DNA from: Escherichia phage vB_EcoS_ESCO41
Reading direction: 5' to 3' (one strand)
Sequence record: NC_047820.1
Length of the DNA stretch: 50,800 nucleotides
In this document: in pieces, positions 1 to 50,703 of the stretch
Position numbering within the stretch: the first letter of the stretch is position 1
Layout of the letters: each line of letters starts with the position of its first letter
Made by a program: the position numbers and the translations under genes
The notes under the pieces: model-generated
Seen by the model: the letters and a program-made list of their open reading frames with translations, nothing else
Database searches by the model: none
What the model was told of the DNA's origin: nothing

Positions 1-100
1 TTGCAGCTATTGCAATGATTCACTTCACTATTGCGCATATAGCAATATTGCATCTATTGCAATGATGTTTTCGATTGTTGCGAATTGAGCAATGATTCAT
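1..100. repeat. iteron-like cluster of ~4 degenerate ~20-bp repeats built on the palindrome ATTGCAAT / GCAATGAT
   Basis: Direct reading: ttgcagctattgcaatgatt (1-20), ttgcgcatatagcaatattg (31-50), ctattgcaatgatg (54-67), ttgcgaattgagcaatgatt (78-97); no credible ORF. Confidence 0.5.
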
Positions 101-207
101 TGATGGGGGGAATGATGGAGTGATGGACTACCATACAAGTTGATTTTGATTCTGGCTGAGCCATTTTTTAGCCGACGCGTAATTGTGTGTAACTCATGTA
201 TAGGGCC

Positions 208-344
208 TGTATACTGTGTAACGATTTGGCATAAGCATACGCGGCATACGCATTTTTACGCATTAGTTACAATAAAATATCTATATATAACAACCCTTTA
301 TCTATATTATTATTATTATATATATCTATGTATACTGTGTAACG
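208..344. repeat. AT-rich element flanked by exact 16-bp direct repeat TGTATACTGTGTAACG (208-223, 329-344), with tandem GCATACGC (235-242, 244-251) and a (TTA)n/TATA tract; paralogous to 31036-31165
   Basis: Direct reading; about 90 bp aligns at roughly 85% with 31065-31160 (judged by eye). Confidence 0.55.
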
Positions 345-545
345 GATATCTAGGGGAGGCATCTGTCAAATTTGATAATATTGCCAACTAATATATAGGG
401 GAGCCATTCCGCCAGGATAATAGGGCCATATGCAGACAATCACCATTCAGTATGCGTTACATGATATACCGCCTACTTACATCAGGCGTAGCGAGGCCTC
501 CAGGGCAGAAATGTTTCCCGGCCTGTTTTTTACATGAGATTACTG

Positions 546-574
546 TTGACTTACGCGTTAACTCCATCCATAAT
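546..574 (+). promoter_or_regulatory. sigma70-type promoter TTGACT-N17-CATAAT upstream of the first early gene
   Basis: -35 TTGACT 546-551, 17-bp spacer, -10 CATAAT 569-574, about 40 nt before ATG 613. Confidence 0.5.
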
Positions 575-612
575 GACCTCACTTAAACGCAACAATCAAA
601 TGAGGTAGCGAG

Positions 613-10186: not shown

Positions 10187-10735
10187 GTGAGATTCAGCGA
10201 TATTTTTACATACAAAAGCGGAGAGGTTTTCTGGAATGGAAGGCCAGAAAGTGATTTTAGTAAAATGAGTGCATATCACGCGTTTAATAGGATGGTTGGC
10301 AATACTGCTGGATACCTAGATAAATCAAACGGATACTGGTATGTGTGGATTACAATTGGCGGTATTGAAAAGAAAATACCACGATCACATATTGTGTGGT
10401 GTATTCACAATAATGCAGCCATCGTTCCAAAAGGGTTTGTTATTGATCATATAAACCACGTAAGAGATGATGATAGGATAGAAAACCTTGAACTTAAAAG
10501 CTATAGAGGAAACAACAGAAACCTTTCAATATCAAAAAGGAATAAAAGCGGTTGCGTAGGTGTTACATGGTATTCTCGCGATGAAATGTGGATGGCTTGC
10601 ATAATGGGTGATGACGGAAAGAACAAAAATCTTGGCAGGTATAATGACTGGTTTGATGCGGTTTGCGCAAGGAAGAGCGCGGAGCATGAGATTGGGTATC
10701 ACACAAACCACGGCAAGGATAGCGAGAATTGCTAA
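10187..10735 (+). CDS. HNH homing endonuclease (GTG start)
   Basis: IDHINHVRDDDRIENLEL matches the HNH/AP2-type motif; paralogous to 12823 and 40179 genes. Confidence 0.75.
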   Translation: MRFSDIFTYKSGEVFWNGRPESDFSKMSAYHAFNRMVGNTAGYLDKSNGYWYVWITIGGIEKKIPRSHIVWCIHNNAAIVPKGFVIDHINHVRDDDRIENLELKSYRGNNRNLSISKRNKSGCVGVTWYSRDEMWMACIMGDDGKNKNLGRYNDWFDAVCARKSAEHEIGYHTNHGKDSENC

Positions 10736-12822: not shown

Positions 12823-13305
12823 ATGAATTTCAATGATTATTTTTATCATGTAGGAAAAGATCTCATCTGGAAAAATCCGACATCAGCAAGGGTTAAGGCT
12901 GGCGATATTGCTGGATGGAAGGATGAGGATGGATATATTTACGTTAGGATTATGGGTAGGCTAACTCCAGCCCATAGGGTAATATGGGAGATGCACCATG
13001 GCAAAATACCTGAAGGTATGGAGATTGATCATATAAACCACATCACGGATGATAACAGGATCGAAAACTTAAGGCTCGTAACCAGGCAAGAGAACTGCAA
13101 AAACGTCTCGATGAGTAAGTCAAACAAAAGCGGATTTGTCGGGGTTAGTTGGTGTAAGAGAACGAGCAAATGGTTTGCTTCAATAAGGGTGGACAAAAAG
13201 GAGCGGTTCCTTGGTAGATACGATATAAAAGATGACGCTGTGTACGCAAGAAAGGATGCAGAGACGAAATATAATTTTCACAAAAATCACGGGAGTAAAA
13301 AATGA
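12823..13305 (+). CDS. HNH homing endonuclease
   Basis: IDHINHITDDNRIENLRL motif; inserted between head genes. Confidence 0.75.
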   Translation: MNFNDYFYHVGKDLIWKNPTSARVKAGDIAGWKDEDGYIYVRIMGRLTPAHRVIWEMHHGKIPEGMEIDHINHITDDNRIENLRLVTRQENCKNVSMSKSNKSGFVGVSWCKRTSKWFASIRVDKKERFLGRYDIKDDAVYARKDAETKYNFHKNHGSKK

Positions 13306-31035: not shown

Positions 31036-31165
31036 TTCCGCGAAAAATGATATACGCGCTGTTACGCTGATTTACGCAATGGTTACATTAAAATATCTAT
31101 ATATATCAACCTTTTACTCTTATTATTATTATTATATATATTACTGTGTATATCATGTAACTACT
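31036..31165. repeat. AT-rich element paralogous to 252-344: ATACGC-type repeats, (TTA)n tract, TACTGTGTA motif
   Basis: Aligned by eye to the left-end element; lies between divergent transcription units. Confidence 0.55.
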
Positions 31166-33717: not shown

Positions 33718-36123
33718 TTAAATCAATCCATAAATAACATTGTGTAACGTAAGGGAGCCAATGGATGGTCCTACGTTAAAGTTTATCTCGGCTCTATATG
33801 CACCCTGAGGAACTGTTGATATAAGAGCGTAAAAAGAGAAGCTACCACCTTGCGGTATGTAGTAACCTACAGATTCCTCAACGGCATTACCAGAAATATC
33901 TAAAAATCTAATACTTGCTAATGCTGTTGTTGTGCTCATGGCCCAAAAGCCGAACTGGAAGTATCTACCCGGTTCGCAATCATAAGCATTAGTGGTAAAG
34001 TTAGCTGATGAGTTTAAGTCCGGTACATTCAAAAGGAATGACCTATCAAACTGAGCAGCTACACCTGTAGGCGCCTGCGAGACACTAGAGACAGCAACCG
34101 ATCCAGAAGAAGTTTGCGACAGTGACCAGTTGGAAGTATTCTGAAACTGGCCGCTGCCATTGCTTAGGCTGTTAATGTAAGGGCTAACAATTGATCCCTT
34201 GCTCCAATCACCAACAGGGAATCCAGCTCTCGGAAAGCACCCTCTCGCGATAACCTTTTTACTAGACCCGCCGACAACTTGCCTTGCTGGGAAACCAGAA
34301 GCAATTGTGGTACTTCCGTATAGGGGAAGCGAACAATTATTCAAGATTACAACGCCATCATCATTACTTACGATTGGAACAGACGTAAAACCATCTGGAA
34401 CAAGAATGGTGGTGTCTTTTATGCTTAATCTCGAACTTCCTGTGACCAGGAATGATACGAAGTTCTGACCTGGCTGATACTCTATATTTCCATTTGAGAA
34501 AACTACCGTCGCGTTATCGGACAGATTTACTGTGGGGTCAAAATAGCCACTCTTTTTACCTGCCGGTAATGAGCATGAATCAAAAATAAACTGACCATTC
34601 TCAAAGGTGATTGGTCCTCCGTTATCTACAATCCAGCAGTGATTAAACTTCATAACTTCACCAGAGTTAGCTCTCGACCTAAAAGTTATTGTCTCATTAA
34701 AACTCCTGCTTATTGCGCATTTATCAAAAAGAATCCTATATGAGTTGTCTAAGAACTCAATTCCACCAGTTGATATGATTCCGCAGTTCTCGATTCTTAA
34801 TTCGCCAGTCTCACCAGATGTTGCTCCACCTATACAGAACTTGCGGGCTCCAAGGCCAATAAATGAAACTCCAGATATCAATGATGTTGATGATATCGAG
34901 TCTCTATCAACATAATCAGTATTTGAGTTGAATATGTTGATGAAATATTCACCAACAGCACCGGGGGACTCTTTAATATTGCACTTGTTCTCGCCTATCA
35001 ATGAACCTTTTGATACGTCTATGTTTATCTGTGATTGCACAAGGCCATCTACAGGCACAACGCAGTCAAGGCCAGCCATGTTTACTGAGTTTATTGGCGC
35101 AGCTATATCACCATCACCAGTGTAACCAGCATCATATACTGTTGCTCTTCTACCGTTAAGTTTACGCCTCCATGTGACGCCGTCTCCTGCAAAAACAGTT
35201 ACATTATTAACCTGAAGTGATGCATCTGACGCGATAAGAGTACCGCCGCCTAGGTTGAATCCAGCCACATAAGACTCAAGCTCAATCGTAGTAATACCAA
35301 TCTCACCTGACAAACTAGATAACTCTGAAACTGATTTAACCTTACCGATTGAGCTTAAACCATCGTAATCAAACAAGTTTGAGTCATAAACCTTAACCCA
35401 TGAATCTACACCAACTCCACCCGTTGAATCTGGCGTAGAGCCTGCTGGAATCGTCTTTGGGAATGACCCAGTCCAGACATAAGACTTAACATCACTTCCA
35501 TTGATGTATAAAACCTGCTGATTTGTAGACTCTACCGTTCCTCCATCTGAGAAGTTTAAAGTTAATGTTCCAGACACAGAGTTTGCCGCTGCCTCTGCTC
35601 TATCGGCGGAAGATGATGCATTGGTGGCGTTAATTTGTGATGATGATGCATCACTTGAAACCTGTTCTGCAATCGTAACAATATCACCGTACTTCGTGTT
35701 TACCTGCTCTGCAATCGTAACAACATCACCGTGCTGCGTGTTTACCTGCGTTACCTTTGATTCAAAATCAGCATAGTCAAAATTGTTAAATGCATCAATA
35801 GCATCTGCAACTTCTGTTTCACGAGACTGATAGTAACGAAGTGTTTCTGCAACATCCTGAGCTAAGCCCTGAACGGTAATCCCATCGTGAGCAAGAATCG
35901 CGTAACCAGTTCCGGCAGGAACAGTTTCAGAATTAGGGTTATAAACATTAATATGCGTATCGCTGATAATTTCTGAGATAGTGTAAATCTGTACTGGTTC
36001 AGTTTTGAAAACAATGGTAGCACCAACGCGAATCAGTGTAAGCGGTGCTTTCCATGTCGTCCCGACGCCAGTAACCTCGCCATTTGCGGCTAGCGATGCT
36101 GTTCCTAAGTCATAAATTGCCAT
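33718..36123 (-). CDS. tail fibre / tailspike protein; start ATG 36123
   Basis: 801 aa; N-terminus MAIYDLGTASLAANGEVTGVGTTW is a phage-fibre-type anchor (recalled from memory); Gly/Asn/Ser-rich body; RBS AGGAG. Confidence 0.65.
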   Translation of the reverse strand: MAIYDLGTASLAANGEVTGVGTTWKAPLTLIRVGATIVFKTEPVQIYTISEIISDTHINVYNPNSETVPAGTGYAILAHDGITVQGLAQDVAETLRYYQSRETEVADAIDAFNNFDYADFESKVTQVNTQHGDVVTIAEQVNTKYGDIVTIAEQVSSDASSSQINATNASSSADRAEAAANSVSGTLTLNFSDGGTVESTNQQVLYINGSDVKSYVWTGSFPKTIPAGSTPDSTGGVGVDSWVKVYDSNLFDYDGLSSIGKVKSVSELSSLSGEIGITTIELESYVAGFNLGGGTLIASDASLQVNNVTVFAGDGVTWRRKLNGRRATVYDAGYTGDGDIAAPINSVNMAGLDCVVPVDGLVQSQINIDVSKGSLIGENKCNIKESPGAVGEYFINIFNSNTDYVDRDSISSTSLISGVSFIGLGARKFCIGGATSGETGELRIENCGIISTGGIEFLDNSYRILFDKCAISRSFNETITFRSRANSGEVMKFNHCWIVDNGGPITFENGQFIFDSCSLPAGKKSGYFDPTVNLSDNATVVFSNGNIEYQPGQNFVSFLVTGSSRLSIKDTTILVPDGFTSVPIVSNDDGVVILNNCSLPLYGSTTIASGFPARQVVGGSSKKVIARGCFPRAGFPVGDWSKGSIVSPYINSLSNGSGQFQNTSNWSLSQTSSGSVAVSSVSQAPTGVAAQFDRSFLLNVPDLNSSANFTTNAYDCEPGRYFQFGFWAMSTTTALASIRFLDISGNAVEESVGYYIPQGGSFSFYALISTVPQGAYRAEINFNVGPSIGSLTLHNVIYGLI
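35661..35744 (-). repeat. intragenic 42-bp tandem repeat (2 copies, 4 mismatches) in the tail-fibre gene, encoding VNTQHGDVVTIAEQ / VNTKYGDIVTIAEQ
   Basis: Direct comparison of 35661-35702 with 35703-35744. Confidence 0.7.
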
Positions 36124-36148
36124 AATAATCAACTCCTATATTGTTGTT

Positions 36149-37234: not shown

Positions 37235-37423
37235 CTAAACAACAAAGTGATGAGTCATTCTCCGCGACAAAAAAGACTCAAGATATCTTTCAATTACTTC
37301 CTTTTTACCAGTTTTTTTGTTGTAGGCGTATGGAGTTCCGCTGGTGTTGTCAACTTTACCAACAAATTTGTCGCCATCAACGTTAAAGATTGCTACGAAT
37401 TTACATTTAGGTAATTTGTTCAT
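37235..37423 (-). CDS. hypothetical protein (62 aa)
   Basis: ORF preceded by leader CACATCGAAAGCAGG and RBS. Confidence 0.45.
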   Translation of the reverse strand: MNKLPKCKFVAIFNVDGDKFVGKVDNTSGTPYAYNKKTGKKEVIERYLESFLSRRMTHHFVV

Positions 37424-37465
37424 TTTGTATATCCTCGTTTGGTTTGCCTGCTTTCGATGTGGTCA

Positions 37466-37508
37466 ATCATACCTCATCAATGAGAAATGTCTTTAGCTTT
37501 TCGTGCCG
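37466..37508 (-). promoter_or_regulatory. degenerate palindrome-promoter cassette embedded in the 3' end of the HTH gene: CGGCACGAAAAGCTA + 22 bp + TATGAT
   Basis: Plus 37494-37508 palindrome-like, -10 at plus 37466-37471, then leader and gene 37235..37423. Confidence 0.45.
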
Positions 37509-37959
37509 CATCGTTAGCGGCCTTAATCTTGCGCCATGAACGACACTCTGGCTTAGTGGCTAGTTCAGCCTCGGTGACGACGCGCAGCATGTGACGCTTT
37601 TTGCAACGCAGCGTTAGCGGCTTACCGTTCCCGTCGAATTGCAGATCCGGTCGGCAGAACGTAGCGCGGAATCCCTCTCCAGTTCGTTTGTATCGGTTAT
37701 GAGCCAGCTGAGCGCCACGGGCCGACATCATGCCGCGCTTAAACCATTCCTCAACGGCCTGGCGACTAACTTTCAGTTGCTTTGCGATATTTGCCTTCGT
37801 TCCGTAGAAGTCGAGAACCATTTCCAGTCGCGCCCGAAGCCCCGCCTTTACTTCATCTTTTAAAACGTAGTAACCTGAAGGTCGTTTTCGTTGCTTTTTG
37901 TCTTCAGTGCGGACTGTTCCGTTGTTACCGTTAATAGTTCGCTTGTCAACTGCTTTCAT
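37477..37959 (-). CDS. basic DNA-binding protein with helix-turn-helix (candidate transcription regulator)
   Basis: HTH-like TKANIAKQLKVSRQAVEEWFKRG; Lys/Arg-rich; divergent from the helicase gene with a palindrome in between. Confidence 0.5.
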   Translation of the reverse strand: MKAVDKRTINGNNGTVRTEDKKQRKRPSGYYVLKDEVKAGLRARLEMVLDFYGTKANIAKQLKVSRQAVEEWFKRGMMSARGAQLAHNRYKRTGEGFRATFCRPDLQFDGNGKPLTLRCKKRHMLRVVTEAELATKPECRSWRKIKAANDAARKAKDISH

Positions 37960-37972
37960 TTTATCACCTCAA

Positions 37973-38015
37973 TAGCATTTTTTGTTAAAAGTCATTACGA
38001 TTTGATGGTAGTATT
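37973..38015 (+). promoter_or_regulatory. palindrome-promoter cassette: TAGCATTTTTTGTTA + 21-22 bp + TAGTAT
   Basis: Palindrome 37973-37987 sits 14 bp upstream of the divergent HTH gene start and upstream of the helicase gene. Confidence 0.5.
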
Positions 38016-38060
38016 GTACCAAATTAAACGCTACAAGACAATTTTTATAGGAATTTAGAT

Positions 38061-39242
38061 ATGTTGCCTATCGAGAAGTTGGTTGCGAACTTCGATAAAG
38101 AAAGAATCAAACAAATTCAGAGAGATTATCAGTTTGGCGAGATAACCCCTTACGAATTCCAGTGCGTTACATTTGATGCAATTGGAAAGGCTATTGGGAA
38201 GTATGAGGCCCCATTTATAGCAGACCTTTCCGTTTCTGCGGGTAAGACAATTATTCTTGCCATGATTGGTAAGCGCATGGAGCAATTAGGGTTGCCTTAT
38301 ATGGTTCTTTCTCGCCAGTCAGAGATAATCAGCCAGAACTCAGAAGAGCTCCGTAATTTCGGTATCCGTAACAGCGTATATTGCGCTGGCCTTAACGTTA
38401 AATCAGTTTACTACCCAACCATAGTGGCTAGTGAGGGTACGGCAGCCAATGGCTTATTTAAGGGGCTTGGTGACTATGTTCCTGCGGTTATCGCTATAGA
38501 TGAATGTCACATGCTTGATACCATAGATATTGTGGAAGCCGAAGAGAATGAAGAAACATTTGAGCAAATGAGCACAAAGAAAGGCGAGATGGTTTTTAAG
38601 GATGGCGTTAATACTGGATTGCTTGGTACTGGTCGTGCGCAGTACACGCTAATAATCACTGAGATGAAGCGTCGCTGCCGTGAAAAATACGGGCGGGAGC
38701 TTCGTATATTCGGCCTTACTGGTAGCCCTTATCGAAACAATGACCATATCGTCGTTAGCAATCCAAACATCCGTGGGTTCTGGCGAAAAACTGTGATTCA
38801 GGTTCCAACAAATTACCTTGTTGATTTGGGATTCGTGGTTCCTACTGTTTATGGCGAGGTTGGCGATTTAGGTTATGACCTTAGCGAGTTTGAGCCTGAC
38901 GGAAGCGATGGTGTGAAAGATTTCAGCAAGAAAGAAATGGATGCGATGGCTGCAAAGATTCACGACAATCAGTCAATGACTCAAAAAATAATGGGGTTTG
39001 TTGTAAAAATACTAGAGACTCGTAACGCCGCGCTGGTTACATGCGCTGGCAAGTTGCACTGCAGTGAAGCGGCTGCCGCACTGCCTGATGGATACCCTTA
39101 CGCAATCATTACTGATTCTACTGGCGAGAAAAAACGACGTGAGATTCTATCTGATTGCCAGACAGGTAAGTACAAAATAATATTCCAAATTGGGTGTCTA
39201 ACTACGGGCGTTTCGGTCCCGCCCTTACGCAATCATTACTGA
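38061..39242 (+). CDS. SF2 helicase, N-terminal part (reading frame broken by 127-bp tandem duplication)
   Basis: Walker A SVSAGKTI, DEAD-box-like AIDECHM; ORF stops 21 nt into the second repeat copy. Confidence 0.65.
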   Translation: MLPIEKLVANFDKERIKQIQRDYQFGEITPYEFQCVTFDAIGKAIGKYEAPFIADLSVSAGKTIILAMIGKRMEQLGLPYMVLSRQSEIISQNSEELRNFGIRNSVYCAGLNVKSVYYPTIVASEGTAANGLFKGLGDYVPAVIAIDECHMLDTIDIVEAEENEETFEQMSTKKGEMVFKDGVNTGLLGTGRAQYTLIITEMKRRCREKYGRELRIFGLTGSPYRNNDHIVVSNPNIRGFWRKTVIQVPTNYLVDLGFVVPTVYGEVGDLGYDLSEFEPDGSDGVKDFSKKEMDAMAAKIHDNQSMTQKIMGFVVKILETRNAALVTCAGKLHCSEAAAALPDGYPYAIITDSTGEKKRREILSDCQTGKYKIIFQIGCLTTGVSVPPLRNHY

Positions 39243-39348
39243 TTCTACTGGCGAGAAAAAACGACGTGAGATTCTATCTGATTGCCAGACAGGTAAGTAC
39301 AAAATAATATTCCAAATTGGGTGTCTAACTACGGGCGTTTCGGTCCCG
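39095..39348 (+). repeat. perfect tandem duplication, 2 x 127 bp (39095-39221 and 39222-39348), inside the helicase gene
   Basis: Base-by-base comparison; 127 is not a multiple of 3; deleting one copy restores a single ORF 38061..40182. Confidence 0.85.
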
Positions 39349-39369
39349 CCGTGGGACACAAGCGTTGTA

Positions 39370-40182
39370 TTGAGAAAGATTGGTAGCTTAACTCTCATGA
39401 TTCAGCTTCTTGGGCGAGGCATGCGAATTCTAAAGAAAAAGCATATAGAAATGGGGATGAAAAAAGATGATCACCTTGTTCTAGACTTCGCCGGCGCACT
39501 TGACGATATGGCCGAACTTTACTTTGACCCAATCATTGAAGAAATTCAGGCTGAGAAGTTCAAGTCCTCAAGGAAAGGTGGTGATGAGGTCCGGCAGTGC
39601 CCGCAGTGTGGATATGAGAACTCACCATTTGCTCGACGCTGTAGCAACAAGATTGATGGAAAGCGCTGTGAGCACTTTTTCAGCTTTACGGTTTGTGAAG
39701 ATATTACTGACCCACAAACAAAGTCCGTCATCAAGAAAGGTTGCGGTACTCGCAACGACATAGCAGCAAAGGTTTGTCGTGAATGCGGAGAAATGCTTAA
39801 AGACCCTAATGCTAATCTAACCGGTAAGATGTATCGTCGTGGTGATTACCTCCGAGTTTATGATTTTCAAGTTGGTTTAAGTAAGAACCAGACTGGAATA
39901 GTTGTTAAATACAACATCATGGCGCATAACGGAGAGCGGTTTAATGCTTGGGAGTTCTTTAATCCAGAATCAGACCATCGAGTTTGCAGCGTGCTTTGGA
40001 AAAATTTCTGCCTATCCCATATTGAGAATCGCACAGAAGCAGCACGAATTGCTAAACTTCGCAGCGCAAAAATGATTATGATGAACGTAGATAAATTCCG
40101 TGCTCCTGTGCAGGTAACTCACAGAAAGAATGGCAAAGGAAAGGACATAATAGCTTTTAAGAATTTTGGAGAATTATTATGA
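39370..40182 (+). CDS. SF2 helicase, C-terminal part (motif VI plus Cys-rich zinc-finger-like region); possibly a pseudogene fragment
   Basis: QLLGRGMR helicase motif VI; CPQCG..RRCSNK..CEHF and CGTRND..CRECG; frame continuous with upstream ORF if one repeat copy is removed. Confidence 0.55.
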   Translation: MRKIGSLTLMIQLLGRGMRILKKKHIEMGMKKDDHLVLDFAGALDDMAELYFDPIIEEIQAEKFKSSRKGGDEVRQCPQCGYENSPFARRCSNKIDGKRCEHFFSFTVCEDITDPQTKSVIKKGCGTRNDIAAKVCRECGEMLKDPNANLTGKMYRRGDYLRVYDFQVGLSKNQTGIVVKYNIMAHNGERFNAWEFFNPESDHRVCSVLWKNFCLSHIENRTEAARIAKLRSAKMIMMNVDKFRAPVQVTHRKNGKGKDIIAFKNFGELL

Positions 40183-40655
40183 ATTGGAATGAGTGTTTTT
40201 ACTATGACAATGGCGTTTTGAGGTGGAAAATCCGCAGGGCTAATTGCGTTAAAATTGGTGACGAGGTCGGATTTAAACACGAGAGAGAGGGTTATAGGTT
40301 TTTCTGTAGGGACAGAAAACAATACTCTACACACAGAGTAATATGGGAAATGTTTTACGGACCAATACCGAAGGGCATGGAGATAGATCACATTAATCAC
40401 GTTAGGGATGACAATAGAATAGAAAACCTTAGACTTGTAAGTAAGCAATCAAATATGGAGAACAAATCGAAATACAAGAACAACAAAAGCGGATTTACTG
40501 GAGTGAGCTTCGAAAGTAAGTCTGGTCGGTGGTCTGTGAGTGTTGGGTCAAAAAGATACGGAAGATTCGATAACATCGAGCACGCAAAAATATGCGCAAT
40601 GATAGTTAGGGCTGAACTTGGATACCACGATAACCATGGGGATTATTTCCAGTGA
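40179..40655 (+). CDS. HNH homing endonuclease
   Basis: IDHINHVRDDNRIENLRL motif; paralog of 10187 and 12823 genes. Confidence 0.75.
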   Translation: MNWNECFYYDNGVLRWKIRRANCVKIGDEVGFKHEREGYRFFCRDRKQYSTHRVIWEMFYGPIPKGMEIDHINHVRDDNRIENLRLVSKQSNMENKSKYKNNKSGFTGVSFESKSGRWSVSVGSKRYGRFDNIEHAKICAMIVRAELGYHDNHGDYFQ

Positions 40656-41071
40656 ATATTACAGATAAGGTTGATTACATTGAGTTTTACCCGGGCCCTG
40701 TTAAATCATGCCCAAAGGAGGATGACGAACAAATATTTTGCTCTGATTGGGTTAAGTATAACTATCCAGAGATGGTATTTTTCCACTGCGTGAATGAGGG
40801 TAAGAAAACCATTGGACAAGCAAGAAAGGACCAGGCTAAAGGATTGCTTAAGGGGGTTTCGGACTGCTTATTCCTGATGCCTGAATCGCTGCGTGGCAAA
40901 TACCCTTTCGGTGCCATAGAGCTAAAGAGAGCAGGAAAAACCCAAGCAAGCCCAGTCAGTGACGAACAGAAGTCATTCCTTAAAAGCGTAAGGGAATCAG
41001 GAGGTTTTGCTGGGGTTGCCTACGGGCGTGAAGGTTTTCTTGCGGCATTTAAAGAGATGATTTCAAAATAG
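40652..41071 (+). CDS. VRR-NUC-like nuclease domain protein (putative)
   Basis: PD-(D/E)xK-like pattern around ..FLMPE..GAIELKRAGK..; low-certainty motif reading. Confidence 0.4.
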   Translation: MNITDKVDYIEFYPGPVKSCPKEDDEQIFCSDWVKYNYPEMVFFHCVNEGKKTIGQARKDQAKGLLKGVSDCLFLMPESLRGKYPFGAIELKRAGKTQASPVSDEQKSFLKSVRESGGFAGVAYGREGFLAAFKEMISK

Positions 41072-41111
41072 CACGAATTGATAAAGACTAATCGGTGAGG
41101 TGGTGTATTAT
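41069..41111 (+). promoter_or_regulatory. palindrome-promoter cassette: TAGCACGAATTGATA + 22 bp + TATTAT
   Basis: Palindrome 41069-41083 overlaps stop; -10-like 41106-41111 in loop of GAGGTG..CACCTC hairpin; leader CATCGAAACGAAG. Confidence 0.55.
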
Positions 41112-41150
41112 CACCTCATCGAAACGAAGTAACCAACCAAGGAAATCAAA

Positions 41151-41423
41151 ATGAAAAAGTCAATCATCGCTCTACTGGCAGTTGTGGCAATGGCAGGTTG
41201 TGCAGAAGATACCAAGTTTTACGATTGCGGCAAGGAATCCTTCACAGTAACCAAGTCACAGATTGTTTCAGATAAGGGCGTTGTTATTGAGCGTGAAGGC
41301 GATCACTACGAACTGCAAACTTTCTTAGGGAAGGCAGTTTACAACGTGACTGAAAGTCAGGTCAAAGTTAGCGTCGGCGGGTTCGTCGCTGTGAATAACT
41401 GCAAAGTTACCGAGGTTAAATGA
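41151..41423 (+). CDS. small lipoprotein (90 aa)
   Basis: MKKSIIALLAVVAMAGCAED: signal peptide plus lipobox. Confidence 0.55.
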   Translation: MKKSIIALLAVVAMAGCAEDTKFYDCGKESFTVTKSQIVSDKGVVIEREGDHYELQTFLGKAVYNVTESQVKVSVGGFVAVNNCKVTEVK

Positions 41424-50271: not shown

Positions 50272-50703
50272 TTAACGATTTTTTGGTGGTCGTTTATAGT
50301 GAGAATAAAACGGCGTTGGCGGAAAGCATGGCTGATAACCAGTCAGGTTCTGACGTGCCGCTTTACCGAGCGCAACAGCCGCATTTTGCTGAACTCTGGC
50401 AATCTCACCATTGCGGAACAACCGCTCTTTACTGAACCGTCGCCCCATGAACTCAACGGCAAGGTAGTCAATAGGATCTAGCGCCACGCGTTTTTCCATG
50501 AATACCTTTCGGCTTGATGCCAGGAATACTTTGCTGCCTTTCTTGCCGACTGCTGAGCGAATAAGTCTATAGGTTGAATCGACGAACTGGTAATAGAAGC
50601 GCCATGCTCCATAGGACCACACATACATCCGGCCTGACGGAGTAATGAATCTGGTCTTGCCGTCAGCAATGCCCTTATAGATAACTCCGTAAACAATGCT
50701 CAT
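50272..50703 (-). CDS. hypothetical protein (143 aa)
   Basis: ORF with RBS AAGGAGAAATAA. Confidence 0.5.
   Translation of the reverse strand: MSIVYGVIYKGIADGKTRFITPSGRMYVWSYGAWRFYYQFVDSTYRLIRSAVGKKGSKVFLASSRKVFMEKRVALDPIDYLAVEFMGRRFSKERLFRNGEIARVQQNAAVALGKAARQNLTGYQPCFPPTPFYSHYKRPPKNR

Follow-up and report, generated by a model that had tools for sequence, protein, structure and literature searches.

The helicase locus and the 127-bp duplication

The window analysed here is the whole 50,800-nt stretch of DNA from Escherichia phage vB_EcoS_ESCO41 (NC_047820.1). It contains a helicase gene that, in the record, is interrupted by a tandem duplication, and the features of this locus are the following:

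37971-37989, plus strand: promoter-like motif AATAGCAC-N3-TTGNTAAA, which precedes the ATG of the helicase by ~70 nt; it belongs to the context of the locus and is not part of the artefact proposed below.
38061-39242, plus strand: 393-aa ORF of an apparently truncated helicase, an exact match to the deposited 'hypothetical protein' AQY55308.1 / YP_009789964.1 (UniProt A0A1U9WR40) of ESCO41; the HNH, VRR-NUC and regulator proteins encoded nearby match entries of this phage exactly as well.
39095-39221, no strand assigned: first copy of the 127-bp unit, which is authentic coding sequence of the helicase (codons ~345-387, RecA2/Helicase_C domain, PYAIITDSTGEKKRREILSDCQTGKYKIIFQIGCLTTGVSVPP).
39222-39348, no strand assigned: copy 2 of the 127-bp unit, 100% identical to copy 1.
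39222-40182, plus strand: remainder of the helicase in the +1 frame, in which copy 2 is read correctly and is followed by motif VI (QLLGRGMR), a pair of zinc ribbons and the C-terminal domain.
38061-40182 minus 127 nt, plus strand: the helicase gene as most probably present in the phage, 1995 nt / 664 aa, a predicted RadD-like SF2 DNA helicase.

An earlier note on this DNA had described an exact duplication of 39095-39221 at 39222-39348, and the sequence itself, Tandem Repeats Finder, a repeat finder (family D2) and a separate script all agree on it, with 127 of 127 positions identical and a start-to-start spacing of 127. Tandem Repeats Finder, applied to the window, returned 39095-39350 with a period of 127, 2.0 copies, 100% matches and a score of 512; beyond the 127-bp unit the identity extends 0 nt leftward and 2 nt (CC) rightward, which constitutes a microhomology at the junction. 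The repeated 127-mer runs from CCCTTACGCAATC to GTTTCGGTCCCG, copy 1 ends in GGCGTTTCGGTCCCG where copy 2 begins with CCCTTACGCAATCATT, and the 32-mer that spans this junction, GGCGTTTCGGTCCCGCCCTTACGCAATCATTA, is impossible in a single-copy genome. The duplication is the sole exact direct repeat of at least 40 nt in the 50.8-kb window, and a perfect repeat of 127 bp is not producible by chance. Which of the two copies, 39095-39221 or 39222-39348, is called the 'extra' one is an arbitrary choice.

Elsewhere in the window, a 42-nt in-frame tandem repeat of two copies (~90% identical, 35660-35743) lies within an 804-aa minus-strand ORF (33718-36132); because its copies have diverged, it looks natural, unlike the 127-bp repeat.

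The list of open reading frames bears out the frame shift of the ORF that begins at 38061 and its stop at 39242, inside copy 2: the 393-aa product ends in ...GVSVPPLRNHY, and the last 6 codons (LRNHY and the stop) are copy 2 read out of frame. In the +1 frame, no stop codon intervenes between a point within copy 1 and position 40182, so that copy 2 is read through. As had also been noted, the C-terminal part, with QLLGRGMR and a zinc-finger-like region, lies in this +1 frame and has no good start: a search for start codons found neither ATG nor GTG, and the first candidate is a TTG at 39370 that is not preceded by an evident Shine-Dalgarno sequence. Deletion of one copy by script yields a single 664-aa helicase, as had been predicted. 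Thus, as a factual description of the repeat and of the disrupted ORF, the earlier note was accurate throughout.

The restored helicase

In the truncated 393-aa ORF, the match to Helicase_C scores 20.7 bits, below the Pfam cut-off of 23.5, whereas in the restored 664-aa protein the match covers profile positions 7-109 of 110 and reaches 30.8 bits, above the cut-off; the junction therefore cuts the RecA2 domain. The restored protein has the features by which an SF2 helicase is recognized, namely a complete Helicase_C/RecA2 domain with motif VI, a Walker A motif and a DExH motif, and SAGKT, DECH and QLLGRGMR are all visible in its sequence. It falls into PHROG 16 (phrog_16, 'DNA helicase') with an E-value of 4e-75, and its closest solved relative is Escherichia coli RadD (PDB 6jde; E 5e-31). 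Taken together, these sequence matches predict an ordinary SF2 helicase with C-terminal zinc ribbons.

RadD, an SF2 helicase of DNA repair, carries a zinc-binding region at its C-terminal end, and the restored protein matches it over residues 209-547. The likeness consists in the SF2 motifs SAGKT, DECH and QLLGRGMR, followed by the zinc ribbons. The restored phage protein differs from RadD in its N-terminal part, and its C-terminal domain is the longer of the two; a RadD-like role in T1-like phages is a prediction. This comparison bears on the helicase gene and not on the duplication.

The gene immediately downstream (40179-40655, plus strand) encodes an HNH_3-type homing endonuclease (E 6e-24) and overlaps the helicase stop codon (ATGA). 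It is one of three HNH_3-type paralogues in the window, with paralogous segments at 10431-10486 and 13013-13068 (family D4). The gene is missing from phage vB_EcoS_FP, where a VRR-NUC gene directly follows the helicase, and an identical HNH protein is encoded in three metagenome contigs (L010-L012). The HNH gene looks like a mobile insertion beside the helicase.

Conservation of the gene in relatives

Comparison with related genomes, which the earlier note had suggested as a check, revealed a single-copy, intact 1995-nt gene throughout. In 61 of 61 phage records that cover the helicase gene, the match spans 1995 nt, that is, 2122 - 127, and the BLAST match to these relatives comes in two pieces owing to the extra copy in ESCO41. 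An explicit alignment with vB_EcoS_FP shows a single copy of the 127-bp segment there, and copy 1 (39095-39221) aligns to that genome one time only. At the protein level, the named members of a 342-member cluster formed at 90% identity are all 664 aa long. Moreover, three metagenome/Logan contigs that carry the identical downstream HNH gene encode a gap-free helicase of 1995 nt and 664 aa, which is 94.1% identical to the de-duplicated ESCO41 gene in nucleotides and 98.3% identical in amino acids. No frameshifted or split helicase was detected among the 61 phage records, the cluster members and the three contigs. Over its full length, the window is colinear with ~50-kb relatives, for instance vB-EcoS-XT34.

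Relative to the three metagenome contigs, 59 of the changed codons upstream of the junction are synonymous and 8 are non-synonymous; downstream, the corresponding numbers are 39 and 3. Hence the whole helicase gene is under purifying selection. Relaxed selection downstream of the break was not seen in this comparison with the closest contigs. Judging from these codon changes, the segment that the record puts out of frame has remained under purifying selection to the present day.

Neither the exact de-duplicated 664-aa protein nor the 270-aa fragment started at the TTG has an exact match in a collection of 15 billion proteins. Given that the exact 664-aa protein is unmatched, the collections searched hold no independent assembly of ESCO41 for comparison.

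Sequencing, assembler and k-mer overlap

When a genome forms a circle in the de Bruijn graph, SPAdes outputs a linear contig in which the last k bases equal the first k bases, and in SPAdes 3.5.1 the k-mer series tops out at 127 for 250-bp reads. The length of the ESCO41 repeat, 127, is thus the largest k of the assembler used, and the SPAdes 3.5.1 run for ESCO41 presumably used k = 127. According to the paper that describes ESCO41 (50,800 bp, KY619305; type of the genus Nouzillyvirus, Drexlerviridae, T1-like), Nextera libraries were sequenced on a MiSeq (2x250) and assembled with SPAdes v3.5.1, and the genome was 'resolved as a single contig'.

Overlaps of precisely this length have been documented as '127 bp artificial overlaps' produced by SPAdes at default settings (Philipson et al. 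2018, PMC5923482), and for phage U136B the SPAdes contig had 127-bp terminal repeats that were trimmed ahead of its re-opening in line with phage TLS (PMC8104045). ESCO41 resembles these cases in the assembler, in the exact length of 127 bp and in the perfect identity of the copies; furthermore, U136B is a T1-like phage, as is ESCO41, and its overlap arises from self-closure of the genome within the assembly graph. The difference lies in the position and fate of the repeat, which in those reports was located at the contig ends and trimmed, whereas in ESCO41 it is an internal tandem duplication, as expected if the contig was re-opened without trimming. Our searches found no usable literature on SPAdes k-mer lists or on internalised overlaps.

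Other genomes from the same laboratory

In SPAdes 3.1.1, the default k series has 55 as its top value. The record of phage ESCO5 (KX664695.3) contains a perfect 55-bp x2 tandem repeat at 145412-145521 (L007 4413-4522). The locus tags of this record run 268..1 and then 274..269, which implies that it was reverse-complemented and rotated, and the 55-bp repeat sits exactly at the point where the tags wrap, between ESCO5_00001 and ESCO5_00274, which marks the join of the former contig ends. At the homologous site, ESCO13 has one copy of the 55-bp unit within flanks that are otherwise near-identical to those of ESCO5. ESCO5 and ESCO13 were sequenced like ESCO41, but were assembled with SPAdes 3.1.1. 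The ESCO5 repeat is the same assembler-overlap artefact, at k = 55, in a second public record.

Thus, in ESCO5 and ESCO41, both from one laboratory, the length of the perfect duplication follows the top k of the assembler, at 55 and 127 respectively. The two cases are alike in laboratory, sequencing, assembler family, rotation of the record and a perfect tandem repeat of the top-k length of SPAdes; they differ in the value of k (55 with SPAdes 3.1.1, 127 with 3.5.1) and in that the ESCO5 repeat fell in an intergenic spacer, where no gene was broken and it went unnoticed. The ESCO13 record is also rotated (tags 280 and 1 meet at L009 5108/5165) and shows no duplication at that join, and ESCO3 contains neither a terminal overlap nor a long exact repeat. 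Among the records of this laboratory, in which overlap trimming was done only sometimes, the defect is therefore sporadic rather than systematic.

Evidence for a probable re-opening of the record

The start and the end of the ESCO41 record lie within one non-coding region that separates a minus-strand block from a plus-strand block in divergent orientation; no substantial ORF begins before 613, and the start of the last minus-strand gene is at 50703. This arrangement suggests that the start of the record was chosen and is not an arbitrary contig break, because an arbitrary break in a densely coded genome would more probably fall inside a gene, as does the proposed break in the helicase. A search with window positions 1-600 showed that relatives carry this region at scattered positions, and no reference for the re-opening was evident. 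We infer that the original contig ends lay at 39221/39222.

Window positions 1-120 hold several short words of the TTGCAAT / ATTGC(A/G) type within the first ~100 nt (TTGCAGCTATTGCAATGATT...ATTGCGCATATAGCAATATTGCATCTATTGCAATGATG), which may be an array of protein-binding sites close to the chosen start, for example a pac or a regulatory region. An 88-nt AT-rich direct repeat (247-334 and 31063-31150, 82% identical, family D5), with TATCTATATAT and (TTA)n runs, is located in the two large intergenic regions at which the orientation of the genes switches, and may represent a regulatory or origin-like region.

Interpretation and alternative explanations

We propose the following scenario. ESCO41 is T1-like, and the genomes of such phages close as a circle in a shotgun assembly; from the 2x250-bp reads, SPAdes would have written this circle as a linear contig whose last 127 bases repeat its first 127. 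The submitters would then have re-opened the contig at a conventional non-coding start, joining the old ends with the overlap kept, and the join would by accident have fallen inside the helicase gene. The retained overlap would have produced both the perfect 127-bp tandem duplication and the frame shift, which would exist in the record only, while the phage itself would have one copy and an intact 664-aa RadD-like helicase. Under this scenario, the reads should contain a single copy of the 127-bp unit, and the true genome is most probably ~50,673 bp long with one intact 1995-nt helicase gene. We regard it as very probable that the duplication goes back to a SPAdes k = 127 overlap, left untrimmed and internalised on re-opening of the record, and hence is an artefact of assembly and curation. 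The earlier note had left three readings side by side, and one of them, an assembly or sequencing artefact, is borne out by the length equal to the top k, by the documented 127-bp overlaps and by the k = 55 case of ESCO5; the other two are not, and neither is the headline of a split helicase gene, given that the evidence supports the artefact alone.

The most straightforward competing view takes the deposited sequence, with its two copies, at face value: a very recent tandem duplication in the sequenced stock would have arisen through slipped or illegitimate recombination at CC, a microhomology of 2 nt at the boundary that slippage could also yield, and the helicase would be inactivated or split but dispensable on the laboratory host. 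Such a duplication would match the k = 127 of the assembler in length only by coincidence, the ESCO5 record from the same laboratory has a k = 55 tandem repeat at its contig join, and the duplication would have struck a gene that is intact at 1995 nt in all relatives found, with both halves under strong purifying selection. Furthermore, the phage is fully viable; in the describing paper it forms plaques, grows to high titre and serves as a component of a phage cocktail. A perfect 127-bp tandem repeat in a useful gene would also be expected to collapse quickly by homologous recombination and to be counter-selected. A recent inactivating duplication, one of the readings of the earlier note, is thus unsupported, and we consider it improbable.

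A duplication that is genuine and also tolerated could in principle operate by either of two routes. Recoding would involve a +1 ribosomal slip at the junction CCG-CCC-UUA, with tRNA-Pro re-pairing from CCC to CCU, resulting in a full-length helicase with a 42-aa internal repeat; the junction does coincide with a codon boundary, U follows the CCC there, +1 slippage is favoured in a CCC-N context, and the +1 frame is open through copy 2. The duplicated segment would, however, repeat core RecA2 strands and motif V. The other route would express separate N- and C-terminal fragments, with re-initiation at TTG 39370, but there is neither a Shine-Dalgarno sequence nor a good start for the C-terminal part, and the promoter-like matches around the locus stay at chance level: scanning 37400-41200 for promoters and terminators yielded 9 consensus matches against 6.8 expected, with only one weak site, seen twice, inside the repeat. 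Both routes presuppose a real duplication, and no relative has a frameshift or a split gene; a split gene with unusual translation, as the earlier note had also entertained, is likewise unsupported, and we give this reading almost no credence. In its strongest form, the idea would be that the duplication is truly in ESCO41 DNA, 127 being a coincidence, and that a working helicase is made either through the +1 CCC-U slip, with the 42-aa repeat in RecA2, or from two fragments that assemble, which we consider highly improbable. A programmed frameshift as such was rejected in view of the lack of a frameshift in any relative. An intein, an intron or a homing insertion was rejected as the cause of the split, since the inserted sequence is a second copy of the flanking coding sequence.

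An artefact of another kind, such as a mis-assembled heterogeneous population, a sequencing chimera or a hand-merged contig overlap, would likewise yield a perfect repeat that is missing from relatives. The describing paper, however, reports a single contig, and the exact length of 127 together with the 55-nt analogue in ESCO5 points specifically to a de Bruijn k-mer overlap, so that the chance of such an origin seems negligible.

Implications for sequence records

As an untrimmed k-mer overlap, the duplication would be without biological importance, and its relevance would lie in the quality of the data. The ESCO41 genome serves as the exemplar of the genus Nouzillyvirus and is a RefSeq entry; the proposed artefact lengthens the recorded genome by 127 bp and, in place of a conserved 664-aa helicase, leaves a truncated 'hypothetical protein' (the 393-aa YP_009789964.1 / A0A1U9WR40) and an orphan C-terminal fragment. 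Such artefactual helicase entries spread into protein databases and comparative analyses, and the GenBank, RefSeq and UniProt entries for both fragments should be treated as artefactual. These observations also offer a simple screen: where the record of a phage or plasmid contains an internal, perfect tandem duplication whose length is exactly 55, 77, 99 or 127 bp, an assembler overlap left untrimmed is the most likely cause.

A promoter-like motif upstream of the helicase and elsewhere

The 19-nt motif upstream of the helicase, AATAGCAC-N3-TTGNTAAA, occurs in 16 copies in the window, compared with 0 expected from shuffled sequences:

1884, 2181, 3023, 3911, 5273, 5902, 37971, 41067, 42381: copies on the plus strand.
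15082, 30195, 30953, 48023, 48661, 50254, 50764: copies on the minus strand.

Each copy has the same orientation as the genes downstream of it. Within the longer families of repeats to which such sites belong (D1/D3), a TATAGT-like hexamer follows ~20 nt after the motif, often with a GC-rich hairpin in between. In this T1-like group, the motif probably serves as a phage-specific promoter or regulatory element.
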